Shown here piece after piece: positions 2,605 through 42,790 of a stretch of 64,000 nt of DNA (position 1 is the stretch's first letter; each line of letters starts with the position of its first letter). The DNA lies in sequence record OR515477.1; one strand, given 5' to 3'. The notes beneath the pieces are model-generated. The model was given only the letters and a program-made list of their open reading frames with translations. It was not told the origin of the DNA and did not search any database. The stretch is from Escherichia phage Es2. The position numbers and the translations under genes are program-made.

Positions 2605-2623
2605 ATTAACTCAAAATAAGGAA

Positions 2624-3321: not shown

Positions 3322-3326
3322 AATAC

Positions 3327-3606: not shown

Positions 3607-3618
3607 AACAATTTATAT

Positions 3619-4156: not shown

Positions 4157-4180
4157 AATTAACTTAAATAGGAAATAAAT

Positions 4181-4440: not shown

Positions 4441-4446
4441 AACAAT

Positions 4447-4524: not shown

Positions 4525-4535
4525 GCTAAATTAAT

Positions 4536-4610
4536 GCGTGATTAGTTCAGTGGCTAGAATAACTGGCTTCCAACCAGTAGACACGAGTTCGACTCTCGTA
4601 TCCCGCACCA
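4536..4610 (+). tRNA. tRNA-Gly (anticodon TCC)
   Basis: Acceptor GCGTGAT/ATCCCGC (one mismatch), anticodon stem ACTGG/CCAGT with loop CTTCCAA, T-arm ACGAG-TTCGACT-CTCGT, CCA. Confidence 0.65.
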
Positions 4611-4624
4611 AATAAGGAAACGTT

Positions 4625-4846
4625 ATGCACGTTTTTGAGTTTCGTAATAAAAATACTGATAAGCGAGTTATCATTATTGGAGAAACATACCGAGCATATG
4701 AACAAACTGACGGCTCTGTTATCTTGAATGATGAGAAAGGAGGTTTTAGCTTTTATCCAGAAGAACCTTATGAAGAGTTTCGTACTAAGTTTCTTTTACC
4801 AGACTGGCTAGCAGTAGCCGAGCAACGAGAATCCGAAGATGGCTGA
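4625..4846 (+). CDS. hypothetical early protein
   Basis: Track ORF 73 aa, AAGGAAA RBS. Confidence 0.55.
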   Translation: MHVFEFRNKNTDKRVIIIGETYRAYEQTDGSVILNDEKGGFSFYPEEPYEEFRTKFLLPDWLAVAEQRESEDG

Positions 4847-5003
4847 TAACCTAAAATTAAGGGTCGACAAACAAAAGAAATACATTGAGGTTGAATTAGG
4901 CGAAGAACGATTAAAGCTAACTTTCGAGTTTCTTCAGCAGTTGGCTATGACAGTTATGACTGATAAGTCTCCTGTTATTGAAAAAGAAATCCCGTTGAAA
5001 TAA
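4839..5003 (+). CDS. hypothetical 54-aa protein (below ORF-track size cutoff)
   Basis: Hand translation MADNLKLRVDKQKKYIEVELGEERLKLTFEFLQQLAMTVMTDKSPVIEKEIPLK; start overlaps upstream stop (ATGGCTGA). Confidence 0.45.
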   Translation: MADNLKLRVDKQKKYIEVELGEERLKLTFEFLQQLAMTVMTDKSPVIEKEIPLK

Positions 5004-5013
5004 CGGGATCATC

Positions 5014-5088
5014 GCTCCTAAAGCATTGCTGGCGATGCAGTTGCCTTGTAAGCATCTGAACCGGGTTCGATTCCTGGTGGGAGCACCA
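5014..5088 (+). tRNA. tRNA-Thr (anticodon TGT)
   Basis: Acceptor GCTCCTA/TGGGAGC, D stem GCAT/ATGC, anticodon loop CTTGTAA, T-arm CCGGG-TTCGATT-CCTGG, CCA. Confidence 0.65.
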
Positions 5089-5103
5089 AATTTAAAAATT
5101 CAT

Positions 5104-5132
5104 TTGCTTTCTCTCTTATTTATTGTTATAAT
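5104..5132 (+). promoter_or_regulatory. early-type sigma70 promoter
   Basis: TTGCTT - 17 bp - TATAAT, then conserved leader ATAAATTAATGAGAGG. Confidence 0.7.
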
Positions 5133-5162
5133 ATTCATATAAATTAATGAGAGGGAAGCCAA

Positions 5163-5456
5163 ATGAAACGTTATCTTTCTGTTGTGTTCCAAACTGGTGG
5201 TCAACGCTATACTTACGAATTTCCTGGCTCTTGGAAGATCAAAGAAGGTGATCAAGTAGTAGTGTTAACACCGCGTGAGGGTTTTAAGGTAGTAACGGTT
5301 AAGCAAGTATTTCCAAAAGAGCGTGAACCAGCTAAAGGCATTCGCTATAAGATGATTCATGGTGTAGTTCGTCAAGTACCACGAGCGGAAGTCGAAATCA
5401 AAGTAGATAAAGATGGTAAACTTAAATATACCTCTTGCTTAGACGAGTTGCTATAA
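5163..5456 (+). CDS. hypothetical early protein
   Basis: Track ORF 97 aa, promoter and RBS upstream. Confidence 0.6.
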   Translation: MKRYLSVVFQTGGQRYTYEFPGSWKIKEGDQVVVLTPREGFKVVTVKQVFPKEREPAKGIRYKMIHGVVRQVPRAEVEIKVDKDGKLKYTSCLDELL

Positions 5457-5662
5457 TGAGGATTACTTTTACAGAAAAGATCATGAGTAATGGTGTTATG
5501 ATCATTACCGCATGGGATGGTAATCAGTGGTGTAGTGTTTCAGGTATTAAGCCTGAAGAACAAACACTAGATAATATCTCAAAGATTAAGCGAAGAATGA
5601 CAGAACGTGCACGACTTCCAGGTGCACCTAGAAATGGCAAACGTTCTGCTGCAAAATGTTAA
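5456..5662 (+). CDS. hypothetical early protein
   Basis: Track ORF 5435..5662 trimmed to in-frame ATG at 5456 that overlaps upstream stop (TAATG). Confidence 0.5.
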   Translation: MRITFTEKIMSNGVMIITAWDGNQWCSVSGIKPEEQTLDNISKIKRRMTERARLPGAPRNGKRSAAKC

Positions 5663-5663
5663 T

Positions 5664-5740
5664 GCTTCGGTAGCTTAGCGATCTAAAGCACTCGGCTGAT
5701 AACCGAGAGATCGGGGGTTTAAATCCCTCCCGGAGTACCA
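5664..5740 (+). tRNA. tRNA-Ile (anticodon GAT)
   Basis: Perfect anticodon stem CTCGG/CCGAG with loop CTGATAA, T-loop TTTAAAT, CCA. Confidence 0.65.
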
Positions 5741-5836
5741 AATTTAGGAATTAAGACTATGCGTCCAGGAAAGTTTAAAAAAGCTAATTGGTCTAAAGAG
5801 TATAAAGAATACTTACTTAGTCTAGTAAAACATAAT

Positions 5837-5912
5837 AGTTAGTTGGCAGAGTGGTTATGCACCTCCTTCATACGGAGCGACTACAGTGGTTCAAATCCAC
5901 TACTAACTACCA
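5837..5912 (+). tRNA. tRNA-Met (anticodon CAT), second copy; initiator/elongator/Ile2 not resolved
   Basis: Perfect acceptor AGTTAGT/ACTAACT, anticodon loop TTCATAC, T-arm AGTGG-TTCAAAT-CCACT, CCA. Confidence 0.65.
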
Positions 5913-23075: not shown

Positions 23076-23643
23076 TGGTCGGATTTGCACAAACGCCTAA
23101 GTTTTTAGGAACATATAATCTCTTGAAAATGGCAGCATTATTTCGGGCCGAAGGCCCGTGATTGCCTGAGTTTTTAGAGCCACAAGAATTTTCACTTGTC
23201 AAGCTATTTTGCCCCATTTAGCAAATAAAATTTTACTTTATCTCCTCTAATCTCAAATTAACCCAAATCTTCTCAACTCTTCCCCAAAATACCCGCAAAT
23301 CAGGTGCTCCGCACCAAACATGCGCCTCTCCCACAGTTCCCCCAAAATTTCTCTCGCTCTCTCAACTTCTCCCCAAACATACACAATCACACACCCTCCA
23401 ATCGAAGCCACAAAAATCTTGTCGGATTCGCACATCTTAATCCTAGAAAAACCGTGTCGGATTTGCACATACCCCACAGGATTCGAACGCAGTTCGAGAT
23501 TGCTGGAGTTTTTAGGAAAATTCATTGTCGGATTCGCACACTATAAAAATTTTTCGGGTCGGATTTGCACACTACCAAAAATTGTCGGATTCGCACATAC
23601 ACGCCCGCACGTAACACCCGTGGAGCAATGTCGGATTTGCACA
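23042..23643 (+). repeat. eight direct copies of 15-bp motif (T/G)GTCGGATT(T/C)GCACA
   Basis: Copies at 23042, 23077, 23420, 23455, 23525, 23556, 23582 and 23629, all in the same orientation. Confidence 0.85.
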
Positions 23644-23667
23644 AAAGCGCAGGGCAATTGCCCTGCG
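23644..23667. repeat. perfect 24-bp palindrome AGCGCAGGGCAATTGCCCTGCGCT
   Basis: Read directly; centred on CAATTG, immediately after the last 15-bp repeat. Confidence 0.85.
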
Positions 23668-23880
23668 CTAAATGAGAATAAAAATAAGAATCATTCTCAT
23701 TTAGAAAGCGGAATGAGAATGATAATAATTCGCATTTAGAAAGCGAAATGAGAATCAATCTCATTTAAGAACGGAAACGAAAATTATTCAGGAAGTGAAA
23801 CGATTCTCATTTAGAAAGTGGAATGATTCTCATTTAGAAAGTGGAATGCAAATGATAATGATTCGCATTTAAGAATGGAA
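23668..23880. repeat. degenerate repeat family TCATTTAGAAAG(C/T)GGAATGA(T/G)
   Basis: At least six related copies with internal dyads (GAATGATTCTCATTC-like); a further copy at 24207-24232. Confidence 0.7.
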
Positions 23881-24012
23881 GTGAGAAACACTGTTATTTA
23901 AGTTATCCACAGACTTATCAACAGCACGATTTGACTTGACAAAATTCTAGCCATTTTGAGGCGTTATCAACAGACTTATCAACAGCTTATCCTACTGTAT
24001 AAATATACAGTA
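23880..24012. repeat. inverted-repeat arm L with DnaA-box-like 9-mers
   Basis: TTATCCACA at 23903 and TTATCAACA at 23915, 23964 and 23976; palindrome CTGTATAAATATACAG; reverse-complementary to 27111-27245. Confidence 0.8.
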
Positions 24013-24378
24013 TTCCTATGCAGTGAATAATTCTAATATACAGCTAAAACGCTCTCAAACGCATTCTAACGCGTTTAATTTTGGTGGGGATACTAAAACA
24101 CGGGCAAAATTGGAGGAGGCTTAGAAATTAGTTAGCTCGCTAACGATCACACAAGGCGACACGTAACATCCTAACCATTAGCAGGCTAACCATCGCGGGC
24201 GCGGTCAAATGAGAATGATTCTCATTTGAGAATTGGGGGCACTTCCTGATAGTTGCGCCCCGTGATTATTACAGTAGTGGGCAACCTTTACGCTTTGCCC
24301 ATTCCCGCCACTCATCTTGATGTCTAGACTTGCGACGGCGTACTAAAAACCATTTATACCAGTGATTAAACCATCGTT

Positions 24379-24582
24379 TCATAAATCCTCCTCCGGTAGT
24401 CGGTGCGTGATTTTTTCCTCCTCTCCGTAGGAATCCACTAAATGCTGATAATAACCATCGTGATCATAAATCACTTTATCATATTCGCCACGCTCGACCG
24501 CTTGTCGGTTTTCCGGCGTATCTGGCACGTAAAAAACATCAACCATTGTACTGATTTTGGTTACAACAATTTTATTGCTCAT
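24379..24582 (-). CDS. hypothetical small acidic protein
   Basis: Track ORF 67 aa; about 15 Asp/Glu against 7 Lys/Arg; last gene of the leftward operon. Confidence 0.55.
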   Translation of the reverse strand: MSNKIVVTKISTMVDVFYVPDTPENRQAVERGEYDKVIYDHDGYYQHLVDSYGEEEKITHRLPEEDL

Positions 24583-24607
24583 AATAACGCTCCGTTATTA
24601 TATAATC

Positions 24608-24952
24608 TCATTGTGCCACCTTTCGAAACGCTGTTTCAATACTTTCCGCAGTTGACTGAATATACGCGCCTTTCATGATCAGGCGCTCAGTGCATACCTT
24701 ACGGAAGATATTAATAAAATCATCTTCATTTTCTGCAATTAACGCTTCACCCATAACCTGAACGTCACAAGATGCAAAGGTCAAAAATTGAAACGCTAGT
24801 TCACGGGCAACGACCTCATTGATTTTATAATGCGCCTTGCCCTCATAAATATTAATAACGCCCTTATATGTTGGGGAAAGCTGATTTAAATAATTTGCTA
24901 ATAATGCTGGGCGGCAATTAGCAATAAAACGATTGCCTTCATAAATAACCAT
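24608..24952 (-). CDS. hypothetical protein
   Basis: Track ORF 24608..24967 trimmed to MVIYEG start with GGGAGG RBS. Confidence 0.55.
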   Translation of the reverse strand: MVIYEGNRFIANCRPALLANYLNQLSPTYKGVINIYEGKAHYKINEVVARELAFQFLTFASCDVQVMGEALIAENEDDFINIFRKVCTERLIMKGAYIQSTAESIETAFRKVAQ

Positions 24953-25079
24953 TTGACAGCCTCCCAATTAGATAGCCAGATAATAACATAAAGATCCCCA
25001 ATGAAAGGGGGTCATTTTTAAATAGGGTGGCGGTAAAACCGCCAGCCATTGCAAGGATGATAACAATAACGCTTTTCAT
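24939..25079 (-). CDS. hypothetical 46-aa membrane micro-protein
   Basis: Hand translation MKSVIVIILAMAGGFTATLFKNDPLSLGIFMLLSGYLIGRLSNGYL; overlaps neighbouring genes; below track cutoff. Confidence 0.4.
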   Translation of the reverse strand: MKSVIVIILAMAGGFTATLFKNDPLSLGIFMLLSGYLIGRLSNGYL

Positions 25080-25288
25080 AGTACCCCACGAAACGCAGCG
25101 TAAAAGGTGGCAAAATGTTTAACTGTTTCAGCTATCACGTTGCCGCGCTTGTCAAATTTCTTTTCTGTAACACGAAAGGCATTCTTATTACGTGCTACAT
25201 ATTCAATTTTACAATCTTCCCGCTCGAACGTGTTAACATCCACCAGCTTAAAGCCTTTCGAACGTGCAAGAGAAACATTGCGGATCAT
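25076..25288 (-). CDS. hypothetical basic protein
   Basis: Track ORF 70 aa; AGGAG RBS 8 nt upstream. Confidence 0.55.
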   Translation of the reverse strand: MIRNVSLARSKGFKLVDVNTFEREDCKIEYVARNKNAFRVTEKKFDKRGNVIAETVKHFATFYAAFRGVL

Positions 25289-25293
25289 TTTTA

Positions 25294-25440
25294 TTCTCCT
25301 TTACTAGTCATGCAGCCCAGCAGATAAGAAAATGCAGCGATACCCGCGCCAATAATAACCGCGTGAACACCGAAAGCTATTGCAAAAAGGGATAAAATAG
25401 CGCCCAAGATACCTGCTAGAATAGCTCGAAAAATAACCAT
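25294..25440 (-). CDS. hypothetical 48-aa membrane micro-protein
   Basis: Hand translation MVIFRAILAGILGAILSLFAIAFGVHAVIIGAGIAAFSYLLGCMTSKGE; GGAGA RBS; below track cutoff. Confidence 0.45.
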
Positions 25441-25486
25441 TTTCATTCTCCTAGTTTGCGGGGCGAAAGTAACGCCCCGTTATTAC

Positions 25487-25717
25487 TTACATTAAAACAA
25501 TTTTTGCCGCTTGTTTTTTAGTACAGTGTTCCGCTTTCAGGGTATCCAGCAAAAAGCCGGCCGTTTGCTGATCGATTTTATCGGCGTTGTATAGTTCTTG
25601 GATGGTGTTATAAGTTTTAGCAATGCCGAACTCCTGCACCATTTCATGAATGATGGCGCGATTAGATACCCAGCCTTGCGCGGTGAACAGATGACTAGCA
25701 GAAGAATAAGCAACCAT
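25487..25717 (-). CDS. hypothetical protein
   Basis: Track ORF 25487..25750 trimmed to MVAYSS start with GGAGG RBS. Confidence 0.55.
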   Translation of the reverse strand: MVAYSSASHLFTAQGWVSNRAIIHEMVQEFGIAKTYNTIQELYNADKIDQQTAGFLLDTLKAEHCTKKQAAKIVLM

Positions 25718-25835
25718 TTTAAACCTCCAAATTTTTGGGAAAATTTTCAACCGTCCTCAAACGGTGTAAAGGCATTATAACAAAAAAGGTCGCCATAAAA
25801 GGCGACCTTTACAAAACTTTACATTAGATTATTTA

Positions 25836-26846
25836 TTACTCGTTTTCGGTGTTAGTGGTAAAAGTAGAAATATCGATACCTTTTACCATTTCATCAATCA
25901 TTTCAGCGATGTTAAAACTTTGCACCATTTCCAACATTGCCGCTTCCATAGCTGCCCCTGCTACCGCTTTCGCTTTCTGGTTGCTTGGGGCATACTGGTC
26001 AACCGCTACGCTCAGCAGGTTGGCAATTACTACTCGACCGATAGGCGTATCAATATAACCTTTAATCATGAACGGTGCTTTTTTAGCCGCTACTTTCGTA
26101 ATTTGAGTCAGTGCAATTTTACCCGCTTCCAGTTTTGCAGCGTTTACAACGGCGGATTTATTAGCGGCAACGATGTTAGCAATCTTGGTCATGGTATTTT
26201 TTCCTTTATTTTCAGTGATTTGAGTATTAACGCTTTGAGTGTTAGAATTTACAGCATGGTTTTCTACGCTGTCAATAATCTGATCTTCATCTTTCCAGAA
26301 AGAAAAACCAGCGCTTTCTATATCCCCATCATAAATATACGGGTATAGCTCCCGTGGTAACAAAAAATTACCGTCGCCATCAAAAGCCATTATACCGGTA
26401 TATTGAGATCCGTCGTTATCCGGCTTATACCATCCAGCGGGTAAATACTTCCAGATAACATCTAAAAATCCCTCAATGCTAGAAAGTCCATTTATCAGAT
26501 CAAGCCCAATAAGCTCAAAACCATTTATATTAAATGATTGACGGCCTGAATTGCTATGATACGCAACAATAGTATTGCCCTGCGCAACAATAAAATCGGT
26601 ATCCGGCCCCGCTCCCCTGCCCGTAAAGATATGGCAATCCCGATTATGTAAAACTAGCGTTGCCCCTTGCTTATATAAGGGTAGAAAACTATCCATATCA
26701 TAGGCGTCATATTCATCAAAAAAGTTTTGATGAATAGTTTCAACCTTGTTAATAAAATGTTTAATGCTGGTTGACTTGCTACCGTCCAGCAGGTTACGCA
26801 ATGCACCTTTTAAGACGGTTGCGTTATCTGGTTTATAAAGCCTCAT
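25836..26846 (-). CDS. hypothetical protein with Ala/Lys-rich C-terminal half
   Basis: Track ORF 336 aa; first gene of the leftward operon. Confidence 0.65.
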   Translation of the reverse strand: MRLYKPDNATVLKGALRNLLDGSKSTSIKHFINKVETIHQNFFDEYDAYDMDSFLPLYKQGATLVLHNRDCHIFTGRGAGPDTDFIVAQGNTIVAYHSNSGRQSFNINGFELIGLDLINGLSSIEGFLDVIWKYLPAGWYKPDNDGSQYTGIMAFDGDGNFLLPRELYPYIYDGDIESAGFSFWKDEDQIIDSVENHAVNSNTQSVNTQITENKGKNTMTKIANIVAANKSAVVNAAKLEAGKIALTQITKVAAKKAPFMIKGYIDTPIGRVVIANLLSVAVDQYAPSNQKAKAVAGAAMEAAMLEMVQSFNIAEMIDEMVKGIDISTFTTNTENE

Positions 26847-27110
26847 TTGTTCGGCCTCCTCGTTAATCGGTGAGTGAATGATAAAGGTATTTTCTTTCTA
26901 GGGGCAAATATTATTTTACCTTTTTATTTTCTTTGCCTAACTCCTAGTTTTATGCTAATCGCGCAGCGGTACAGTAAAGAGCAAAACACGGCGAAGCCAC
27001 CAGGGCGACGGGTGAAGGCTTTACTTTAATATTACCCCACTGCATTTAGCTCGTTAGAAAGCGATTTAGGCCGCTTAAAATTGATTGCAGTTGTTAACAC
27101 TACCTTTTTA

Positions 27111-27245
27111 CCCTGTATATTTATACAGTAGGATAACCTGTGGATAAGTCTGTGTAAAAGTCCTTATATCGCCGCCTATCATGTCAAGTTATTTTACAAA
27201 ATGTATAAGTCTGTGGATAACTTAAATAATAGTGTTTCTCACTAA
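27111..27245. repeat. inverted-repeat arm R with DnaA-box-like 9-mers
   Basis: TGTGGATAA at 27139 and 27212; palindrome CTGTATATTTATACAG; reverse-complementary to 23880-24012. Confidence 0.8.
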
Positions 27246-27410
27246 CTAATTTATGCAGTTATTATATCGTAAAATATAGTTAGTTGGCTAATAGGATTTT
27301 AAAGTGATTATGAGTCCGCTAATTAAACCTGAAAAACTCATTAGCTAGTCTGCTAATCATTTTGATATAATATAATAGAGATTAAATTAATAACATAAGG
27401 AAACAATTAG

Positions 27411-27929
27411 ATGCCTAAATATAAACATATAGATTATGACCTTTTTAATAGTTACTTTTATTATGATGAAACATCGTTATCATTTTTACGCTGGCGAGAA
27501 GATCATGCCATCGCTGGTGGTTTAAATGGTAATTATTGGCAAGTTGAATTATTAGATAAAGGACAATTCAAAGTACATAGAATTATTTTTTGTATAATGA
27601 ATGGTGGTATAGATAGCGAGCTAATGATTGATCATATTGATCGTAACCCCCGTAATAATAACATTTGGAATCTTCGCGCGGTTGATAGTTCCCAGAATAA
27701 CTATAATAAGACTCCTAGTGAGTATGAAAACTATAAGCGTGCTAATGGTATCCCTAGAAACATTTACGTTAATAAAATTCGCCCCCGTGATAGTTTCGGG
27801 CGTGATTATTTAACTGCTCAAATTAAGAATCCTATTACTAACAAGCGTGTTAGTAAGTCTGGTTATGATTTACAAGAGTTATTATTATGGCTTGAAGCTA
27901 AAAAAGCTGAATTCGGAATTGTCAATTAA
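27411..27929 (+). CDS. HNH endonuclease (homing-endonuclease-like)
   Basis: 172 aa; HIDRNPRNNNIWNLR...SQNNYNK His-Me finger pattern; AT-rich gene inside a more GC-rich module. Confidence 0.65.
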   Translation: MPKYKHIDYDLFNSYFYYDETSLSFLRWREDHAIAGGLNGNYWQVELLDKGQFKVHRIIFCIMNGGIDSELMIDHIDRNPRNNNIWNLRAVDSSQNNYNKTPSEYENYKRANGIPRNIYVNKIRPRDSFGRDYLTAQIKNPITNKRVSKSGYDLQELLLWLEAKKAEFGIVN

Positions 27930-28154
27930 TTTATTTTATAAATTAACTCGTTTAGTCTTGATTTTTAAAAGTCAAGACCTTTTTCAACTATTTTTCAATT
28001 TTGCGGTTGTTAAATATTTGTTAAACCGAAAATAAGCCGCCTAAAACGCCCCAGAACGCGATGAAAGTTTTAGTCATGCCATTGCATTGCCTACCCTCGT
28101 TTATCGCTACCACGAGCTTTTTAGATTTTGTCAAGTAGGGGAAAGCAAATATAA

Positions 28155-28445
28155 ATGAAAAAATTACTTGCCTATCTGCTATGTTTTGTGGTATTCACGC
28201 GCCCGTTTCTTTTAATTTTAGTGTGCCGCGCCCTAGTCGCCGCACGCCGTCCGGTGAATCGTGTCTTTACGTTTCTTTACAAAAATAAGGTTGCGCCATT
28301 TTCGGGAATCCCCTATTATTTATCACGTAGGGCGGCAATGACGAACTACACGGCGGGAAGTTTACCGCCACGCTCTTTAAAAATTGGGTATATCTTAAAG
28401 CCTATCGGCGGTAAACTTATTCATTATAAGGAATCGACGATATGA
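28155..28445 (+). CDS. doubtful ORF (possible small secreted protein)
   Basis: Track ORF 96 aa with hydrophobic N-terminus, but GC-rich and structured region; could be non-coding. Confidence 0.25.
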   Translation: MKKLLAYLLCFVVFTRPFLLILVCRALVAARRPVNRVFTFLYKNKVAPFSGIPYYLSRRAAMTNYTAGSLPPRSLKIGYILKPIGGKLIHYKESTI

Positions 28446-28645
28446 AACAAACGCTTTTGATAACTGGTAAACCAGCTAAAAAATTAGATGGTACTACTAA
28501 AAAATTGTTGACAGTAGCGCAAAGATCCATAAGATATAGATTCACGCAGTACAAGAAAGGCCGCCAGCAAGGTTTAGAAATGATCTGGCGAAATATTATG
28601 ATTGACCTGAAAGAAAATCATAAAAAACTGCAAAAAATTGTTTGA
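28442..28645 (+). CDS. hypothetical small basic protein
   Basis: Track ORF 67 aa; bracketed by a 17-bp perfect inverted repeat. Confidence 0.5.
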   Translation: MKQTLLITGKPAKKLDGTTKKLLTVAQRSIRYRFTQYKKGRQQGLEMIWRNIMIDLKENHKKLQKIV

Positions 28646-28670
28646 CACCCTAGCCGATAGGCTTTAAGAT
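28642..28670 (+). promoter_or_regulatory. sigma70 promoter overlapping an inverted-repeat arm
   Basis: Consensus TTGACA at 28642, 17-bp spacer, TAAGAT at 28665; overlaps IR arm 28653-28669. Confidence 0.5.
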
Positions 28671-28875
28671 GTACCCAGTTCGATGAGAGCGATAACTTGA
28701 TACAATTTGACGGTCGGTGCTTACCATAATGCATCCCGCCCCCTAACTGGGATATAGCGGCCTGAGTGGAGTTCTTTAAATTGATTATAATGGCGAGCGG
28801 ATTGTTACTTATTACCTGCTACTATTTTCTAGTAGGTAATGCGAAACAATCCCCTAAATAACTGGAGTTTATACT

Positions 28876-29127
28876 ATGCAAAACGTTACTAATGCGCCGA
28901 AAATTGGTCAATCCGTTTTTATCCCTTTCGTTACCAAAACGGATGAATTAACCGGAAAAGCCGAACGTATTAAAGGTGCGGCGCTTATGCCGTTCGATAC
29001 AATCGACGCGGTATACGCTGAAAATGAACGCAGTAACAACGGCAAGCCGATTTATAACGTTCGCGTTAAATCCGGCGACGTTGTAAAGGTTGTTCAACGC
29101 AACGAAAAATGGGAAGCTGTACTGTAA
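28876..29127 (+). CDS. hypothetical pre-early protein
   Basis: Track ORF 83 aa, GGAG RBS; followed by a 9-bp-stem hairpin at 29143-29168. Confidence 0.6.
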   Translation: MQNVTNAPKIGQSVFIPFVTKTDELTGKAERIKGAALMPFDTIDAVYAENERSNNGKPIYNVRVKSGDVVKVVQRNEKWEAVL

Positions 29128-29225
29128 TCTAGTGTTAACTTTATATTCCCCTGAAATATGGGGAATATAACGATTAACATTAGTTAATCATAATCCCTTA
29201 AATTAAACTAATAGGAGTTTATATC

Positions 29226-29633
29226 ATGACTAACGCAAAAACCGCAAAATTCGCATGGAATGAAGAAAACACCCAAAAAGCTGTTACCATGTACCAGCAG
29301 TTAATCAACGAAAACGGTTTAGATTTCGCAAATAGTGACGGGCTGAAAGAGATTGCAAAAGCAGTAGGCGCGGCTTCTCCCGTATCCGTTCGCTCAAAAT
29401 TGACCAGTGCAAAAGCCTACCAGAAAAGCGATAAGCCGCGTAAAGTTGGCGGCGGCAGTTCTGTACGCAAAGCGCATTATGTGCGTGTTATTGCTAAACA
29501 TGCCATTGATTCCGGCATTATCAAAGACGCTGACGATCTGGCATCACTGGAAAGTGCAAAACTTGAAACGCTGGACGCGGTAGCGCAATTGCTAGGCGTT
29601 GCCGATGAAGTGAAACAAGCCGCAGGCGAATAA
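29226..29633 (+). CDS. A2: A2-like pre-early protein (putative DNA-binding)
   Basis: 135 aa; position immediately upstream of the A1-like gene; assignment by synteny and size only. Confidence 0.5.
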   Translation: MTNAKTAKFAWNEENTQKAVTMYQQLINENGLDFANSDGLKEIAKAVGAASPVSVRSKLTSAKAYQKSDKPRKVGGGSSVRKAHYVRVIAKHAIDSGIIKDADDLASLESAKLETLDAVAQLLGVADEVKQAAGE

Positions 29634-29722
29634 TAGTTATACATTGCCCTTCCTAGTGGGAGGGCAATAATATAACTGTTTAGCGATAGTTATTTTCTTC
29701 CCTTAAATCAGGAGTTTTAAAA

Positions 29723-29920
29723 ATGATTTTCTTTCCTACTGAATCATTAATTTTAGGCTTGTTTATTATGGCGGCCTCATTATTGTTCGCTTATTTTCAA
29801 AATGATTTAGATTCATATTATTTTAAACGTAAATCTAAGTTAGCAAAGCGTTTAGGTCTGATTTGTTTTATTGCCGCCGTTGCTTGTGGTGTTAGTTCTA
29901 GCCTTATGCCTTTAAATTAA
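29723..29920 (+). CDS. hypothetical membrane protein
   Basis: Track ORF 65 aa, two hydrophobic segments. Confidence 0.5.
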   Translation: MIFFPTESLILGLFIMAASLLFAYFQNDLDSYYFKRKSKLAKRLGLICFIAAVACGVSSSLMPLN

Positions 29921-30016
29921 TGTTGCAAATTATAACGCCTATTATTCAAGGCGTTATATTTGGCAATATTTGCCAATAACAAACGTTTTTTAATCCCTTT
30001 AATGGAGTTTATTACT

Positions 30017-31681
30017 ATGATTATTTCCGCAGAAAAACAAACCGTTATCCTGAAAATGGCCGCTGACTTTAATTTCTATGGTAAACGTCTGCGCGCCACT
30101 AAACTGGAGGTCTGCGACGATATATCAAAAGCGGTCTACGATACAACAAAACACTCGACCGCCATTTGTGATTGGCTGGAAGCAAATAAACCAGTTAAAC
30201 CAAAAGCTGCAAAAGTAGCAAAAGCTATTAAAAACGATGAGCGCCCCGAAGCGGCTGGGATCGTTTCTAGCACGGTTGAACAGTGGGAAGTAAAACAAGG
30301 CAAACGCTTTATTATTACGTCGATTCAGAATAATACTTTCCCGCATAAAAACTTTTTGGCCTCGCTTGAACAGTATGCTAAATACATCGGCGCTGATTTG
30401 CTTGTTTCTAAGTATATTTATAATAAAAACGGCTTCCAAAATGGTGAAGGTGCGGATGGAATCAAATATGATTCCGCGTTCGATAAGTATATTTGCAGCA
30501 AAAACGTGTTTTTAAACAACCGCCGTTTTGCTTTCATGGCTGAAATTAACGTTTTGCCTACCGCAGATTATCCGCTTTCTGGATTCGCTGAAACTGCAAC
30601 GGCGCTTAATCTTGAAGGTCTGGCAATTGGTCACGCTAAAATCACCGCCGAAAGCGTGCCAGCTTTAAAAGGTGAAGTAGTACGCCGCATGTACTCAACC
30701 GGAACGGCAACGCTAAAAAACTACATTCAGCAGAAAGCAGGGCAAAAAGCGGAAGCGCTGCATAACTTCGGTGCGCTGATTGTTGAGTTCGACGAAGACG
30801 GTGAGTTTTTTGTACGCCAGCTTGAAACAATGGACGAAAGCGGGGTGTTTTATGATCTGAATGTTTGCGCTACTCCCGCAGGATGCTATGAAACATCGGG
30901 GCATGTTTTAGGTTTACAATATGGCGACATCCACGCAGAAAAATTAGATGATGATTGTGCCGTTGCGTCATGGGCTGGCGAAAATAGCTTGCTTGATATT
31001 CTTAAACCAAAATATCAGTTTATCCATGACGTTCACGATTTTACATCTCGCAATCATCATAATCGTGCGTCCGGTGTATTCCTAGCGAAACAGTACGCCG
31101 CCGGACGTGATAAAGTTCTGGATGATCTTATCGATACGGGGCGCGTGCTGGAATCAATGGAACGTGATTTTAGTCAAACGATCATTGTTGAATCGAATCA
31201 CGATTTGGCGCTATCCCGTTGGCTGGATGATCGTAATGCTAACATTAAAGACGATCCAGCAAACGCCGAACTATATCACCGCCTGAATGCTGCAATTTAC
31301 GCGGCAATCGGTGAACACGACGAAACGTTTAACGTGTTAGATTATGCGCTGCGCAAGGTTGCAGGTTGCGAGTTTAACGCCATTTTCCTAACAACTGACC
31401 AATCATTTAAAATTGCAGGCATCGAGTGTGGCGTACACGGTCACAACGGCATTAACGGAAGCCGTGGCAATCCTAAACAGTTTAAGAAATTGGGCAAACT
31501 GAACACGGGGCATACGCATACGGCAAGCATTTACGGCGGGGTATACACCGCTGGCGTGGCTGGTAGTCTGGACATGGGTTACAACGTTGGCGCGTCAAGC
31601 TGGACGCAAACGCATTTAATTACCTATGCAAACGGTCAGCGCACTTTGATTGACTTTAAAAACGGTAAATTCTTTGCGTAA
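30017..31681 (+). CDS. A1: A1-like pre-early protein with metallophosphatase motifs
   Basis: Track ORF 29960..31681 trimmed to ATG at 30017 with GGAG RBS (554 aa); ESNHD and GHTHT phosphoesterase-like motifs. Confidence 0.7.
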   Translation: MIISAEKQTVILKMAADFNFYGKRLRATKLEVCDDISKAVYDTTKHSTAICDWLEANKPVKPKAAKVAKAIKNDERPEAAGIVSSTVEQWEVKQGKRFIITSIQNNTFPHKNFLASLEQYAKYIGADLLVSKYIYNKNGFQNGEGADGIKYDSAFDKYICSKNVFLNNRRFAFMAEINVLPTADYPLSGFAETATALNLEGLAIGHAKITAESVPALKGEVVRRMYSTGTATLKNYIQQKAGQKAEALHNFGALIVEFDEDGEFFVRQLETMDESGVFYDLNVCATPAGCYETSGHVLGLQYGDIHAEKLDDDCAVASWAGENSLLDILKPKYQFIHDVHDFTSRNHHNRASGVFLAKQYAAGRDKVLDDLIDTGRVLESMERDFSQTIIVESNHDLALSRWLDDRNANIKDDPANAELYHRLNAAIYAAIGEHDETFNVLDYALRKVAGCEFNAIFLTTDQSFKIAGIECGVHGHNGINGSRGNPKQFKKLGKLNTGHTHTASIYGGVYTAGVAGSLDMGYNVGASSWTQTHLITYANGQRTLIDFKNGKFFA

Positions 31682-31735
31682 TTAAATTATTACCCTAGCG
31701 GCTTGAAATACAGCCGCTATTATAGGAGTCAAAAA

Positions 31736-31993
31736 ATGAAAGTTACATTACCCAAAACATTAGACGAAAAAGCGTTTATTTCCCCCGATGAAATGGAATC
31801 CGATAAAGTTTACAGCTTCGGGCCTATCCTAGCCGCCAAAACTAATACTGATGGAATTATTACAGTCGATTATCGTGATAATGATATTGTTCCCTTTGAC
31901 GATGATGACGCTTTTTACGAGTGGTTAAGCGATAATAATTTACCCGTAAGTGGTGAATTAACGCCGTATCAGATGCAAATCATTATCAAATAA
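31736..31993 (+). CDS. hypothetical pre-early protein
   Basis: Track ORF 31703..31993 trimmed to ATG at 31736 with AGGAG RBS. Confidence 0.55.
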   Translation: MKVTLPKTLDEKAFISPDEMESDKVYSFGPILAAKTNTDGIITVDYRDNDIVPFDDDDAFYEWLSDNNLPVSGELTPYQMQIIIK

Positions 31994-32032
31994 TTTAAAT
32001 CCCCTTATTAAACTAATTGGAGTTTTATAACT

Positions 32033-32425
32033 ATGAAAAAGCAAAATATCCCATTCGACCGCGCTCAGTCCTCAATTGTTCTGGTTTATTCCAACGGCGA
32101 ACGTTACCACGTCGAGGCGGGGCACGTTATTGATGACCTATTAGATTTCAATGACGCTTTGCAGGTTACTACCTTTGCATATACGCAGGGCAAACTAACC
32201 AGCCATATTAAAGCAAAAGGCGTTTATGTTGACACGGTGAAACAAGAAACGATTATCATCGACGCCGTAAAATCCGGCCTAGCCTTTGCAGTTGTCGCGC
32301 CTTGCCTCGCTTGCCTTGATGATCAATTGATTAGTGCAAAGGTCTACACATGTGCGGGGATTCGTTCTAGCGTATCCGGTGAGGATGTTAGTTTTATCGC
32401 TGATGCGTTGGCTTATGGTCTTTAA
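32033..32425 (+). CDS. hypothetical pre-early protein
   Basis: Track ORF 130 aa, GGAG RBS. Confidence 0.6.
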   Translation: MKKQNIPFDRAQSSIVLVYSNGERYHVEAGHVIDDLLDFNDALQVTTFAYTQGKLTSHIKAKGVYVDTVKQETIIIDAVKSGLAFAVVAPCLACLDDQLISAKVYTCAGIRSSVSGEDVSFIADALAYGL

Positions 32426-32505
32426 TAGTTGATTTATTATTGCCCGCTTATAAATAGCGGGTAATGCTGAATTAATCTAATCCCTTAAATGGAGAACGTA
32501 ACAAA

Positions 32506-33240
32506 ATGAGTCAAGTTAAAACGAATATTACCCGCTCTTTCCCGCATATTTCCCGCGTTATGATTTGGGATCTGGACGGCACTATCATTAATTCTTTCCA
32601 TCGTGTAGCGCCTTGTTTTGATAGCGAGGGCAATTTAGATTTAAATAAATATAAAAATGAAGCCTGCAAACATCATTTAATAATGCAGGATTCATTATTG
32701 CCATTAGTTGAATATATGCGCCAGTGTATGAATGACGCTAACACGTTAAACATTATTTGCACCGCTCGACTGATGAGCAAGTCAGATTATTATTTCTTGC
32801 GTAAACAAGGATTGCGGGGGCGTGGAAATAGCAATATCCGCGTGTTTTCCCGCGATACCCTGCACAAATACTTTAAAGCTGATAAAGTTAGCGAGATATA
32901 CCACAGTAAGGACGCAGTTTATAAATCTTATTATTTTGAATTATTTAAACAATTATATCCGAACGCTGATTTTACAATGATTGATGATCATAAAGGCGTG
33001 TTAGCGGCGGCGGCATCATACGGATTTAAAACGCTGGACGCACAAGCCGTTAACGATATTCTATCAATCGGTGTTACATTGATTGGTGAAACCTTTATTG
33101 ATGAATCGCTCGACGATGATAATGATTATCAGTTCCTAGCAGACCGCCTGCAATTATGTTGGGAAGGTATGACCGAGGAAGAACGCGCAGAATATAGTTG
33201 CAGTCCTCAACAGTACATCGAGAAATTAAAAGTTGCATAA
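32506..33240 (+). CDS. dmp: 5'-deoxyribonucleotidase, HAD family
   Basis: 244 aa; HAD motif I IWDLDGTIINS; size and position match my recollection of T5 dmp. Confidence 0.75.
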   Translation: MSQVKTNITRSFPHISRVMIWDLDGTIINSFHRVAPCFDSEGNLDLNKYKNEACKHHLIMQDSLLPLVEYMRQCMNDANTLNIICTARLMSKSDYYFLRKQGLRGRGNSNIRVFSRDTLHKYFKADKVSEIYHSKDAVYKSYYFELFKQLYPNADFTMIDDHKGVLAAAASYGFKTLDAQAVNDILSIGVTLIGETFIDESLDDDNDYQFLADRLQLCWEGMTEEERAEYSCSPQQYIEKLKVA

Positions 33241-33397
33241 TAATTAAAGTTGAAATAGTCACGGTGTGTAATGATAACATGCCGTGACTATTAGTCTGCT
33301 AAGTACCGGGCGGTAATGAGACTCATTCTCATCTGGTGGGCCACTGGACACACCTCCATGTGTAATCTTATGAAATTTGGCAAAAAGGTAATTAGCG

Positions 33398-33601
33398 CTA
33401 TTTACGGACTGACTGCTCAAAGACTTCCCGCCACAGAGGGTCAGTCTTAACTAGATTATTAATATGCTCAATAGCTTCATCAAATCTCATGAATCCTTCC
33501 GGGATTTCCGAAGACTTAGGAAAAACTTGCAGCATCTCCTGTGTGATACCCATCTTTTCAAGATCTTCTTGGGTTAACTTAAACTGTCCGAATTCTTTCA
33601 T
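33398..33601 (-). CDS. hypothetical protein
   Basis: Track ORF 67 aa. Confidence 0.5.
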   Translation of the reverse strand: MKEFGQFKLTQEDLEKMGITQEMLQVFPKSSEIPEGFMRFDEAIEHINNLVKTDPLWREVFEQSVRK

Positions 33602-34593: not shown

Positions 34594-34860
34594 TTACAGG
34601 TAATTAGATTGCTCTAGTTTAAATTTACAATCACCGTATTTAAGGTCAAACTGACTGAGATCCCACCACCCAAACTTAGTACGGAGCTGTACTACTGGAA
34701 AGCGATCTCCCTTAATACGAACTTTTTGAACCTTGAGGCCGTAATGTTCCTCTCCAGCACCACCAAAAGATTTTACAAACCCCGTACAAAATGGTTTGGG
34801 GGCAGGTGCACAACCAGATAACATAACTGCGGCAACTAGTGCAATCACAAACTTTTTCAT
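34594..34860 (-). CDS. llp: Llp-like lipoprotein (candidate receptor-blocking lytic-conversion protein)
   Basis: 88 aa; signal peptide with lipobox LSGC; divergent from the receptor-binding protein gene. Confidence 0.65.
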   Translation of the reverse strand: MKKFVIALVAAVMLSGCAPAPKPFCTGFVKSFGGAGEEHYGLKVQKVRIKGDRFPVVQLRTKFGWWDLSQFDLKYGDCKFKLEQSNYL

Positions 34861-34945: not shown

Positions 34946-36703
34946 ATGGGTTTTTTCGCTGGAAAATATAGCGATGGTAAGACCGTACTATCTTTAAATA
35001 CTGAATCTGGTGGTGACATTAATCGTCACTATAGCCCAAATGCCAATAGTATTTTTCATAGTGATATGCCATTTGTCCTAGTTGATGGTACTTACGAGGC
35101 TGGGTTAGGTAATGCCGGGAATGGGTTTTTTGTATGTCAAATGCCCTCTGACATAATAAATATTAAATCTAATGACCCGGGTAGAGTTATACTAACTGCT
35201 ATTGAAATTAATGGTACTCACAGAGCTTTTCTTAATGGTACTCAGAGTAAGGTTGGTCAAACTATAGTTGCCACTCAGGCAGACCCCTTTAGGTCTTTTG
35301 CCAGTGTTTCTCAAACCAGTGGATTTGCATTTGGTAATAGTCTAGCATCTGGCACTTATAACTACAACCCCTCTCTAGGGCATGAAGAATCTATCTCTAG
35401 AAGTGGCACAGGGGGTACTACGTTACATAGTACGTATCATGGTATAGTTAGGCCCGGTGGTGGAGCACCTGTAGGAGTTACTGTTGCAGAAGCCTTTGCA
35501 CAATTAGGTTTTCCTACTAATAGTAGCACAGTACCTGTAGATGGTAATAACCCATACTATTGGGATCCTGGATGGATGGCTCCTCTAGGAGCAGCATATA
35601 GGGGGCATGATTGGTTTTATGTTTGCAATTCTAATATACGTGGATATGGTGGGGTTAGGCAAGGGCTCCCTGGTAATGTAAATACTATGTACCATGATGG
35701 TGGTAATAGATTTGTTTGTAGAGGGTCTACTACTAATTTAGCTAACCAGTCGGGTGACTCTACAATACTACAGGACTGGTATAATATAACTCCTACTAAG
35801 GTTATTTGGTATGTTCTTAATTTAAGGTACTCAAATGGTGGAATGAGTATTTCAGGTAACCCTTTCACTGGTTCTGATATTCTTATATCTCCTTCTAATT
35901 TTATAATTAAAGGGGTAAGTCTCCCTAATACCGGGTATAAATTTATTAATCAGAATGCTTTTGGTAACCTAGGTTACCGTCCTGATATGGAGTATATAGG
36001 GAATAACGCTGCGTATACTGGGGTTTTTGGGGATACCACTGCAAGGTGTGAACTTGTAGGATCTAGTAATGGAGGGTTGTGGTCTCCTGTAGATTATGGA
36101 GGTGCCAAATCACAGATTAGCATTTACAAATTTGGAGCAGGTAAACAGTGGTATGTAAACTCTAACGATAATACTATTGGTAATGAGCATGGGGTTGTTT
36201 GGGGACCATCAGCAGTTCCATTACGACTTTTTGGAGGAAATGTAGGTAGCTCTTACATGGGGGATGATATTACTCCTAGCTATCCAGGAACTGGGGATAG
36301 GTACGTTGGTTTATCAACTATTGGGCTAGGTATACCTGGTGGCAATGCTACAGTAATTCTTACTACTGAAGTTATATCAGGTAATCTTAACTGTGCAGGT
36401 GTCCCAGCTAACACATGGAATAATGGTGTGTTTCAAGTACAAGGAAGAAAAGCGCATAGTTATAGTAATGGAGATGCAATATTCCACCAGATTCTAACGC
36501 TACCTGTGGGCTATCTAGTACCTTTTCATACTACAGCAGCTTTTAGATACACCCCTAATAATGCTTTAAGCAGGAATAGTTTTATATATACCGCTAAAAA
36601 CCTAGGAAATGGAAATGTAGAGTTAGGGGTAGTTATGCATGTCAGTTTAGGTAGTGCAGTTTTCTTACCTAGACTAAGAGTAACAGTTCAACGCCTTACC
36701 TAA
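34946..36703 (+). CDS. oad: receptor-binding tail protein (pb5-like)
   Basis: 585 aa, Gly/Asn-rich; position next to llp and before terminase; receptor identity not determinable here. Confidence 0.65.
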
Positions 36704-41413: not shown

Positions 41414-42790
41414 ATGACTATTGATATTAATAAGCTGAAAGAAGAACTTGGTCTGGGTGATCTGGCTAAATCTCTGGAAGGTCTGACCGCTGCTCAGAAA
41501 GCTGCTGAAGCTGAACGTATGCGTAAAGAGCAGGAAGAAAAAGAACTGGCTCGTATGAATGACCTGGTTTCTAAAGCAGTTGGCGAAGATCGTCAGAAAC
41601 TGGAACAAGCTCTGGAACTGGTTAAGTCTCTGGATGAGAAATCTAAGAAGAGCGCAGAACTGTTCGCACAGACCGTAGAAAAACAACAGGAAACTATTGT
41701 TGGTCTTCAGGATGAAATTAAATCTCTGCTGACAGCTCGTGAAGGTCGTTCCTTCGTCGGTGATAGCGTAGCTAAAGCACTGTATGGTACTCAGGAAAAC
41801 TTTGAAGACGAAGTAGAAAAACTGGTTCTGTTATCTTATGTAATGGAAAAAGGCGTATTCGAGACCGAGCATGGTCAGAGACACCTGAAAGCAGTGAATC
41901 AGTCTTCTTCCGTAGAAGTTTCTAGTGAAAGCTATGAAACTATTTTCTCTCAGCGTATTATCCGCGACCTGCAGAAAGAGCTGGTAGTTGGTGCACTGTT
42001 CGAAGAACTGCCGATGTCTAGTAAGATTCTTACTATGCTGGTTGAACCGGATGCTGGTAAAGCTACTTGGGTTGCTGCTTCTACCTATGGTACTGATGCA
42101 ACTACTGGTGATGAAGTTAAAGGCGCTCTTAAAGAAATTCACTTCAGTACTTACAAACTGGCTGCTAAGTCCTTCATTACTGATGAAACTGAAGAAGATG
42201 CAATCTTCTCCCTGCTGCCACTGCTACGTAAGCGTCTGATTGAAGCACACGCTGTTTCTATCGAGGAAGCGTTTATGACCGGTGATGGTACTGGTAAGCC
42301 TAAAGGTCTGTTGACTCTTGCTAGCGAAGATGGTGCTAAAGTTACTACTGAAGCTAAAGCTGATGGTACTGTTCTGGTAACTGCTAAAACCATTTCTAAA
42401 CTACGTCGTAAACTGGGCCGTCATGGTCTGAAACTGAGCAAACTGGTACTTATCGTATCTATGGATGCTTACTATGATCTTCTGGAAGATGAAGAATGGC
42501 AGGATGTTGCACAGGTTGGTAACGATGCTGTTAAACTGCAAGGTCAGGTTGGTCGTATCTATGGTCTGCCGGTTGTAGTTTCTGAGTACTTCCCAGCTAA
42601 AGCAGCTGAGAAAGAGTTCGCAGTTATTGTTTATAAAGATAACTTCGTAATGCCACGCCAGCGTGCTGTTACTGTTGAACGTGAGCGTCAAGCTGGTAAA
42701 CAGCGTGATGCATACTACGTTACTCAGCGTGTTAACCTGCAACGTTACTTTAGTAATGGTGTTGTATCCGGTGCTTACGCTACCGCTTAA
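41414..42790 (+). CDS. major capsid protein precursor with N-terminal scaffolding-like domain
   Basis: 458 aa; coiled-coil-rich N-terminal third. Confidence 0.85.
   Translation: MTIDINKLKEELGLGDLAKSLEGLTAAQKAAEAERMRKEQEEKELARMNDLVSKAVGEDRQKLEQALELVKSLDEKSKKSAELFAQTVEKQQETIVGLQDEIKSLLTAREGRSFVGDSVAKALYGTQENFEDEVEKLVLLSYVMEKGVFETEHGQRHLKAVNQSSSVEVSSESYETIFSQRIIRDLQKELVVGALFEELPMSSKILTMLVEPDAGKATWVAASTYGTDATTGDEVKGALKEIHFSTYKLAAKSFITDETEEDAIFSLLPLLRKRLIEAHAVSIEEAFMTGDGTGKPKGLLTLASEDGAKVTTEAKADGTVLVTAKTISKLRRKLGRHGLKLSKLVLIVSMDAYYDLLEDEEWQDVAQVGNDAVKLQGQVGRIYGLPVVVSEYFPAKAAEKEFAVIVYKDNFVMPRQRAVTVERERQAGKQRDAYYVTQRVNLQRYFSNGVVSGAYATA

Follow-up and report, generated by a model that had tools for sequence, protein, structure and literature searches.

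We describe here a short region of the genome of Escherichia phage Es2 (sequence record OR515477.1), of which a stretch of 64,000 nucleotides (nt), called the window below, was analysed. Judged from gene content and order, positions 28800-33300 of the window are the rightward pre-early operon of a T5-like (Demerecviridae) phage, with the genes T5.007-A2-005-A1-003-002-dmp. Genes were assigned by comparing the open reading frame (ORF) map of the window with the annotated T5 genome (NC_005859) and by tblastn against about 45 relatives. The operon genes, and the hdi gene that precedes them, are the following (lengths in amino acids, aa):

28442-28645, plus strand: hdi (T5.008) orthologue, overlapping the operon promoters (tblastn with T5.008, 92.5% identity, 67/67 aa)
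28876-29127, plus strand: T5.007 orthologue, 83 aa, DUF7177 (Pfam PF23801, E = 1.8e-42; phrog_3747; 90% identity to T5)
29226-29633, plus strand: A2, DNA-binding protein required in second-step transfer (phrog_1725, E = 8e-52; 98% identity to T5 A2)
29723-29920, plus strand: T5.005 orthologue, 65 aa, membrane protein with two transmembrane segments (phrog_4820; 98% identity to T5)
30017-31681, plus strand: A1, 554 aa (94% identity to T5 A1)
31736-31993, plus strand: ORF at the T5.003 position, 85 aa, variable and found in some relatives only (phrog_8297)
32033-32425, plus strand: T5.002 orthologue, 130 aa (phrog_4576; 92% identity to T5)
32506-33240, plus strand: dmp, deoxynucleoside-5'-monophosphatase (phrog_415; 95% identity to T5 dmp)

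The region matches 496 phage records, and the best of these, from the T5-like Salmonella and Escherichia phages phB7, SCF, PK7 and FFH_1, align over the full length at 92-93% DNA identity. The operon proteins are overall 90-98% identical to their T5 counterparts, with A2, A1 and dmp at 98, 94 and 95% aa identity along their full lengths (PHROG families 1725, 1745 and 415), and the order 007-A2-005-A1-(003)-002-dmp, every gene pointing to the left genome end, is alike in T5 and about 40 relatives. The initial annotation had proposed a pre-early-like module with A2-, A1- and dmp-like genes, and these prove to be orthologues in T5 order beside the genome terminus. Genes, order, orientation, promoter positions at hdi and location in the terminal repeat are all common to this operon and that of T5 (NC_005859, T5.001-T5.007), whereas the hegG of the window is only 56% identical to its T5 counterpart and the hairpins after A2 and at the end of the operon are of a different sequence type. 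The translation of dmp carries HAD motif I (DxDx[TV]), with W-D-L-D-G-T at residues 21-26 and DLDGT at 22-26 (motif I alone was read), and Pfam, NCBIfam and PDB sequence searches with it gave no match. The operon adds, at the level of an isolate, one more member to a system already known in detail, with gene identities that were already known; the NC_005859 annotation of the operon carries no hairpins and no leader motifs.

The operon runs up to a predicted end of the phage chromosome:

33349-33350, no strand: predicted left physical terminus, the junction of the collapsed terminal repeat (...CCACTGGAC(A))

Where the ends of records or contigs have been determined, these terminate at ...CACTGGAC(A), and other assemblies run on exactly like the window. 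The ends of the relatives map to 33349-33350, and the window is therefore a permuted assembly in which the long terminal repeat has been collapsed. The terminus sits 110 nt past the dmp stop codon, and the left terminal repeat of T5 begins 123 nt past its own. The operon lies in the long terminal repeat, and the sequence past 33350 is the right-hand unique end.

In T5, first-step-transfer (FST) DNA is the sole phage DNA in the cell during the first minutes of infection (Annor et al. 2026, preprint, 10.64898/2026.04.02.716235; Davison 2020). By orthology with T5, the operon would be expressed from this DNA, before second-step transfer, and host RNA polymerase would transcribe it from strong promoters in or adjoining hdi. 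Two sigma-70 promoter-like sites, each scoring 10/12 in a promoter scan, are placed accordingly in the sequence:

28508-28535, plus strand: TTGACA-16-TAAGAT, positional equivalent of T5 P-H22
28642-28670, plus strand: TTGACA-17-TAAGAT, partly overlapping the end of hdi

The first maps to T5 4799-4873, within T5.008, and P-H22 has been located inside hdi (Annor et al. 2026). The second is the probable equivalent of T5 P-D/E20, reported to overlap the end of hdi in part (Annor et al. 2026), and is likely to be the operon promoter; the same authors handle these T5 genes as a single operon. The untranslated 5' leader that follows (28646-28875, ~200 nt) is strongly structured, at -62 kcal/mol per 230 nt, and near-identical in T5. 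Internal promoters after each of the hairpins described next were considered and rejected, the promoter scan giving weak 9/12 matches that are mostly intragenic.

Stem-loops stand in the leader, at nearly every junction between cistrons, and after dmp. Folding was assessed by z-scores from 200 shuffles, and in no case did any of the 200 shuffled sequences fold as well:

28799-28852, plus strand: leader stem-loop, 12 + 1 + 8 bp, -24.5 kcal/mol, z = -6.6, directly 5' of the first CCC-box and Shine-Dalgarno sequence (see below); also in T5
29129-29183, plus strand: stem-loop 1 (007/A2), 11-bp inner and 11-bp outer stem, -26.2 kcal/mol, z = -7.2, no U-tract
29634-29678, plus strand: stem-loop 2 (after A2), 11 + 8 bp, -25.1 kcal/mol, z = -7.0, no U-tract
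29921-29968, plus strand: stem-loop 3 (005/A1), 10 + 2 + 6 bp, -20.4 kcal/mol, z = -5.8, no U-tract
31696-31719, plus strand: stem-loop 4 (after A1), 8 bp, -12.9 kcal/mol, z = -5.0; present in T5
32426-32479, plus strand: stem-loop 5 (002/dmp), 11 + 8 + 3 bp, -23.6 kcal/mol, z = -6.3, no U-tract
33248-33300, plus strand: terminal stem-loop, ~18 bp, after dmp and ~50 nt before the physical end, -24.3 kcal/mol, z = -6.7

Each of the five hairpin sites of the initial annotation turns out to lie within a real stem-loop as its inner stem (-20 to -26 kcal/mol, z = -5.8 to -7.2), and to these the leader hairpin at 28799-28852 and the post-A1 hairpin at 31696-31719 can be added. The 39-nt junction between the 003-position ORF and 002 has no hairpin and is the only such junction in the operon. 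The lack of U-tracts that had been noted is likewise borne out: by terminator scan, which demands a T-run and picks up none of the hairpins, and by direct reading, no hairpin has five or more T in the 8 nt past its stem. We relied on these two methods because an automated survey of hairpin tails proved unreliable for T-tracts, its minimum-free-energy folds having spilled into the flanks. An Rfam scan of 27900-33500 found no family, its one match being at chance level (E = 0.76).

The hairpins are conserved as structures and not as sequences. Among about 40 close relatives, the stems change either by compensatory substitution or by wholesale replacement. Stem-loop 1 exemplifies the former: 99.2% of the alignment cells of its 19 variants are paired, one pair being seen as CG (6), GC (5), AU (4) and UA (4), and 0/500 shuffles reach the observed covariation score, a figure that is indicative rather than exact, as the variants are phylogenetically related and shuffle statistics overstate their independence. 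In stem-loop 5, RNAalifold finds pair 20/40 as GC (7), AU (6) and GU (1), and the window itself holds the G·U intermediate; this stem has been replaced wholesale in four relatives (L006, L024, L026 and L035). Stem-loop 3 is kept in 29 variants. Unrelated hairpins occupy the junction of stem-loop 2 in T5, Klebsiella phage GZ8 and Serratia phage Kamaji, and different hairpins stand in the place of the terminal stem-loop in T5, GZ8, L041 and L043. More generally, T5, GZ8 and Kamaji have strong hairpins of unrelated sequence at matching junctions, and even a Vibrio relative whose A1 is 34% identical has hairpins at A2/A1, at A1/dmp and after dmp.

Near-perfect palindromes in a region of unusual DNA handling, where injection takes place in two steps and where A2, a DNA-binding protein, is encoded, could in principle act as DNA, either as cruciforms or as sites for A2 or another protein in injection, replication or packaging. 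We think this very unlikely. The G·U positions of the sense strand, whether fixed or part of a GC/GU/AU series, would turn into A·C mismatches in a cruciform or on the opposite strand, and stem-loop 5 has several U·G pairs that do not vary on the sense strand. At each of the four junctions tested, the sense fold exceeds the antisense fold in stability by 1.5-4.5 kcal/mol (p = 1e-5 to 0.04; 3.5 kcal/mol for stem-loop 3). Since wobble pairs exist on the sense strand only and the sense folds are the stabler, the functional form should be the sense RNA. A sequence-specific protein site is further argued against by the wholly different sequences found between genera, in which pairing alone is kept.

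As RNA elements, the hairpins might still be leaky terminators or attenuators that produce a falling gradient of expression or stop transcription before the DNA terminus. Their stems (8-22 bp, with GC-rich tops) stand immediately 3' of stop codons, in the Vibrio relative a T-tract is present at one junction, and the last hairpin lies just before the physical DNA end. Such a role is nonetheless improbable: none of the hairpins in the window is followed by the T-run of an intrinsic terminator, and a proper terminator was available, the other repeat arm having a canonical one with a T-tract (25810-25785, after gene 011). That second pre-early arm (24379-26846, minus strand) holds orthologues of T5.011, 012, 013, 014, 015 and 017. 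Moreover, the essential A1 gene comes only after three hairpins and dmp after six, convincing internal promoters are lacking, and the hairpins must therefore permit read-through.

The initial annotation suggested that the hairpins serve in the RNA as signals for processing or punctuation, and the G·U evidence from the sense strand agrees with this. Their most likely roles, between which we see roughly equal odds, are as putative processing boundaries or as 3'-exonuclease barriers. In the sense RNA, the stem-loops would act as barriers to 3'-exonucleases, as processing boundaries for RNase III or RNase E, or both, and would thereby divide the polycistronic transcript into stabler segments, in the manner of the RNase III sites in the T7 early operon. 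In five of the seven, the stem adds up to a nearly continuous helix of 18-22 bp with 1-nt bulges, and one stem is 8 bp; helices of 18-22 bp are of RNase III substrate size and lie here between the cistrons of an early operon, as the T7 sites do. In T7, RNase III sites (R0.3-R1.3) lie between the cistrons of the early operon. The likeness proposed here is that of a polycistronic early operon of a virulent coliphage, transcribed by host polymerase, with stems of ~20 bp between most cistrons that have no terminator function. Unlike the T7 sites, the stems here are near-perfect, with 1-nt bulges in place of the asymmetric internal loop of the T7 type, and one of them is no longer than 8 bp. No intercistronic hairpins or RNase III processing were found described for the T5 pre-early operon in the literature searched, and the hairpin punctuation of this operon appears to be undescribed.

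A second recurrent element precedes the cistrons. Their leaders take the form (T)AA[TC]CCC[TC]T(A/T)AAT, 0-11 AU-rich nt, [ACT]GGAG, 7-12 nt and ATG, in which we call the first part the CCC-box:

28849-28859, plus strand: CCC-box ATCCCCTAAAT, T5.007 leader
29193-29203, plus strand: CCC-box ATCCCTTAAAT, A2 leader
29698-29708, plus strand: CCC-box TTCCCTTAAAT, T5.005 leader
29993-30003, plus strand: CCC-box ATCCCTTTAAT, A1 leader; an ACCC box upstream of A1 is also found in Klebsiella, Serratia and Vibrio relatives
31999-32009, plus strand: CCC-box ATCCCCTTATT, T5.002 leader, at the junction that has no hairpin
32480-32490, plus strand: CCC-box ATCCCTTAAAT, dmp leader

Exact matches to ATCCCTTWAAT number three in the 64-kb window, all of them in leaders of the operon. 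The shorter [AT]CCC occurs in 6/7 operon leaders of the window, 6/7 in T5, 6/6 in GZ8 and 7/7 in Kamaji, against 8-13% of the other genes in those four phages (p = 3e-5 to 2e-6), and the Vibrio A1 leader carries TAACCCAATGAGG. RNAalifold pairs UCCC with the GG(A)GA of the Shine-Dalgarno sequence; both sides are invariant, so covariation cannot test this pairing, and a weak, anti-Shine-Dalgarno-like sequestration is a possible function suggested by the folding model. Pairing of the CCC-box with the 3' end of 16S rRNA was considered too and rejected, only three rRNA nt being available beyond the anti-Shine-Dalgarno. The common leader would standardise translation initiation of each cistron. It appears to be undescribed.

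The codon usage of the operon sets it apart from the rest of the window. The fraction of G or C at third codon positions (GC3) is 0.43-0.45 in 007, A2, A1 and 002, 0.385 in dmp and 0.35 in the 003-position ORF, and T5.005 has phage-type codons (0.21-0.25); most other genes of the window lie at 0.19-0.40. The initial annotation had reported that genes here use more G/C-ending codons (GCG, CGC and CTG) than the early or late regions, and counting confirms it. At synonymous sites, GC3 in the operon has a mean of 0.369 and a median of 0.412, compared with 0.264 in early genes (p = 0.005) and 0.251 in late genes (p = 0.003, Mann-Whitney), a significant shift relative to both sets. All three codons are enriched over the early and late genes combined: CGC at 25/46 versus 49/625 (0.54 versus 0.08, p = 2.5e-14), GCG at 34/132 versus 92/1099 (0.26 versus 0.08, p = 4e-8) and CTG at 27/107 versus 134/1144 (0.25 versus 0.12, p = 2e-4). 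The depletions are as striking. AGA and AGG account for none of the 46 Arg codons of the operon and for 259/625 (41%) in early and late genes (p = 1e-10), ATA falls to 3/85 from 237/936 (p = 3e-7), and CTA, GTA and GGA are likewise depleted.

The shift is directed toward the host. As references we used E. coli K-12 codon counts from 30 ribosomal-protein, elongation-factor and rpoA genes and, separately, from 34 ordinary genes. The difference between the operon and the rest of the window correlates with the difference between average E. coli and the rest (Spearman r = 0.82, p = 4e-15), and it does so within A/T-ending codons (0.77) and within G/C-ending codons (0.71). Because the correlation persists within each class of codon ending, the shift is not merely a GC effect. 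Lys AAA (0.87 versus 0.67) and Glu GAA (0.79 versus 0.66) rise in the operon, counter to GC and toward host preference. The same direction is seen in T5 (r = 0.70; AGA+AGG 1/49 in the operon versus 167/527), in Kamaji (r = 0.74; 0/61 versus 183/730) and in GZ8 (r = 0.65), where AGA/AGG, ATA and CTA go down and AAA and GAA go up at a nearly equal GC3 (0.472 in the operon versus 0.454). T5.011-017, the other FST arm, moves the same way (r = 0.60 in the window, 0.43 in T5), and GC3 is 0.37 in each arm.

Two explanations that invoke DNA composition can be weighed against these data. A regional mutational effect of the terminal repeat, such as GC-biased repair or gene conversion between the repeat copies, would account for the raised GC3 of both repeat arms, but not for the rise of AAA and GAA, for the host correlation among A/T-ending codons alone, or for the codon-specific shift of GZ8 at almost unchanged GC3. 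It should also act on non-coding DNA, and the intergenic GC of the operon is not raised (0.30, the non-coding comparison being 0.32-0.36). The hegG gene, a mobile gene that lies between the two pre-early arms and inside the repeat, serves as a control and shows no host-directed shift (r = -0.27). We judge such an effect most improbable. The HNH homing endonuclease at the hegG position (27411-27929) is AT-rich, with a GC3 of 0.21.

The other explanation, a separate evolutionary origin, was one of two causes that the initial annotation offered for the distinct composition. The operon would have come by horizontal transfer from a GC-richer genome, enterobacterial or other, and its drift toward phage composition would be incomplete, and in its favour GC3 and total GC do exceed those of neighbouring regions and the codon usage is nearer to average than to highly expressed E. 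coli genes. However, A1, A2 and dmp are core Demerecviridae genes; 1134 phage records contain A1, among them records of Vibrio, Caulobacter, Rhizobium and Flavobacterium phages, and it is reported to be conserved in all Demerecviridae (Annor et al. 2026). The codon signature is common to three genera of differing genomic GC3, the intergenic DNA of the operon is AT-rich, and hegG, which is truly mobile, has phage-like AT-rich usage. There is thus very little to commend acquisition from elsewhere, and of the two proposed causes it is that of different expression constraints, codon-specific and host-directed, that holds up.

What kind of constraint this might be is suggested by the phage's own tRNA genes. 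In T5, these genes, including Ile2(CAU), Arg, Leu(UAG) and Gly(UCC), all lie at 28-41 kb, outside the 10.2-kb first-step DNA, and the tRNA genes of the window (423-5912) are likewise outside FST DNA. Codons cognate to U34-type phage tRNAs, taken with AGA and ATA, have a share of 0.19 in their families in the operon versus 0.30 elsewhere (p = 4e-10), of 0.15 in its four small accessory genes and of 0.20 in the other FST arm, and the fraction drops similarly in T5, GZ8 and Kamaji. We suggest that the pre-early genes need fast translation on the host tRNA pool alone, the phage tRNA cluster being on second-step DNA and absent from the cell during pre-early translation, and that codons dependent on phage tRNAs are avoided for this reason; the purge of codons that later genes use freely would follow because only host tRNAs are usable during first-step transfer. 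The best overall explanation of the locus, with a probability of roughly 0.6, is that it is an FST operon whose codons are tuned to host tRNAs and whose cistrons are parted by stem-loops that permit read-through and probably stabilise or process the transcript. The tRNA cluster of the window has 16 genes and is truncated by the window edge; its tRNAs for fourfold boxes are mostly of the U34 type (UGG, UAC, UGC, UAG, UCC and UGU), and it includes two CAU tRNAs. T5 has one further CAU tRNA, outside this stretch, which is annotated as Ile2 and reads ATA.

Several observations weigh against this explanation, as does the relatedness of the covariation variants mentioned above. The major capsid gene (41414-42790), with a codon adaptation index (CAI) of 0.72 against E. 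coli ribosomal-protein genes, AGA/AGG at 1/22, ATA at 0/17 and a GC3 of 0.30, is purged of rare codons, and strong expression alone can therefore do so; tRNA timing is not cleanly separable from expression level. The operon is nearer to average E. coli, with more GCG, CGC and ACG, than to the ribosomal-protein set (r = 0.61), and tRNA supply alone does not predict its preference for G/C-ending codons, for which selection for mRNA stability under full host RNase activity is one possibility. The shift is weaker in the T5.011-017 arm, T5.005 and the 003-position ORF retain phage-like GC3, and hairpins after genes are common elsewhere in the window too. Finally, E. coli K-12 was the only host reference, also for the Klebsiella and Serratia phages, and the true host may be Salmonella.

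The capsid gene also underlies the alternative of translational selection on very highly or rapidly expressed genes, independent of any absence of phage tRNAs in FST. Its cognate-codon fraction (0.127) is even lower than that of the operon (0.189), and A1 reportedly reaches very high abundance early in infection (Davison 2020). We find this alternative rather doubtful, if worth taking seriously. All seven operon genes avoid phage-tRNA codons, including the small dispensable ones (AGA/AGG 0/10, ATA 0/28, cognate fraction 0.148), and the second FST arm does so as well (0.197), whereas outside FST only a few structural genes do. The favoured codon sets also differ, being G/C-ending in the operon and T-ending in the capsid gene. 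The probable major capsid gene thus represents a second mode of host adaptation, its CAI matching that of host ribosomal genes via T-ending codons.

The proposed tuning of the operon to host tRNAs has a precedent in the partition of early and late codon usage and the complementation by phage tRNAs in virulent phages, in which the first-expressed genes are host-like and the phage tRNAs match later codons. That principle is already known (Mioduser et al. 2017, BMC Genomics 18:866, and the 'all-destructive' tRNA hypothesis, both cited in PMC13015707). The difference here is that the partition is physical, the tRNA genes simply not being in the cell while the pre-early genes would be translated. 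The literature searched gave no description of pre-early codon usage or of such a partition for T5, and a codon partition tied to the pre-early operon appears to be undescribed.

The largest protein of the operon, A1, deserves separate comment. Its start is the ATG at 30017 and not an upstream TTG or ATG; the in-frame ATG at 30002 falls inside the Shine-Dalgarno sequence (…ATGGAGTTTATTACTATG). The protein is laid out as a helical N-terminal region, a central beta-rich region and a C-terminal metallophosphoesterase domain, with the motifs GDIH (303-306), HD (337-338), NHD (394-396), H474 and GHTH (498-501). These follow the DxH / GD / GNH[DE] / H / GHxH metal-ligand pattern, with the difference that motif II has H before the Asp instead of G, and D304, H306, D338, N394, H395, H474, H499 and H501 do not vary in sets of 24 and of 47 homologues (down to ~35-41% identity). 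The metallophosphatase-type motifs that the initial annotation had read in A1 are thus present, with their key residues invariant. No sequence match in Pfam (PF00149 or related), NCBIfam or PDB was found for A1 or for any of the 24 homologues, and phmmer against PDB and a 24-sequence profile against PDB returned nothing or spurious matches at E >= 0.005. The fold was revealed by structure comparison only, which gives a four-layer alpha/beta-sandwich of the calcineurin-like type for the C-terminal domain, closest to nuclease-type members, with Foldseek E-values all >0.03.

On the predicted structure, then, the C-terminal domain of A1 folds as a nuclease-type metallophosphoesterase (DP1/SbcD/Mre11-like) whose metal-binding motifs are intact. 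Compared with the archaeal PolD DP1 3'-5' exonuclease and with SbcD/Mre11, A1 adds the helical N-terminal and central beta-rich regions (~290 residues) and reads HD rather than GD in motif II, and unlike SbcD/Mre11 it has no evident Rad50/SbcC-like partner; it has been reported to pair with A2 (Davison 2020). A1 is both necessary and sufficient for host DNA degradation in vivo according to a recent preprint (Annor et al. 2026), which the predicted nuclease-type fold matches. The nuclease or phosphoesterase role in host takeover that had been proposed for A1 is therefore supported, at the level of a structural model, by a fold that the structure search found to be present.

Punctuation by RNA hairpins, the leader box and the proposed link between codons and tRNA timing recur in different genera; the programme that they refine is a known one, and they do not amount to a new kind of system. 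More tentatively, and with less confidence than we place in the explanation given above, they could together form an undescribed RNA-level expression code, made up of boundary stem-loops, a CCC-box/GGAG leader and a purge of phage-tRNA codons, for the minutes in which ~8% of the genome is in the cell. In such a code, the stem-loops may be RNase III or RNase E sites or exonuclease barriers, and the leader, with its anti-Shine-Dalgarno-like CCC-box, is one whose conservation extends from phages of E. coli to those of Vibrio. Pre-early protein synthesis is shut off in an A1-dependent way, and the CCC-box leader might be what this shut-off acts on; the elements described here are candidate cis-elements for it. 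T5 is a classic model phage whose two-step DNA injection and host takeover are under active study, and what is added here is evidence of an operon adapted to expression alone in an untouched host cell. [quoted passage not shown]

The surroundings of the operon are those of a T5-like genome. Upstream lie the other pre-early arm (T5.011-017, minus strand), early genes and the 16 tRNA genes, and two long terminal-repeat stretches with dubious ORFs only, at approximately 23100-24300 and 26900-28400, probably correspond by position to the injection-stop-signal and repeat regions of T5. Downstream are a gene for an llp-like lipoprotein, a receptor-binding protein gene and late genes. The receptor-binding-protein-like gene (34946-36703, 585 aa), which stands beside the divergent llp-like lipoprotein gene (34594-34860, minus strand), has the most phage-extreme codons in the window, with a GC3 of 0.22, AGA/AGG at 17/22 and ATA at 15/33, and the region may be a recently exchanged host-range module.

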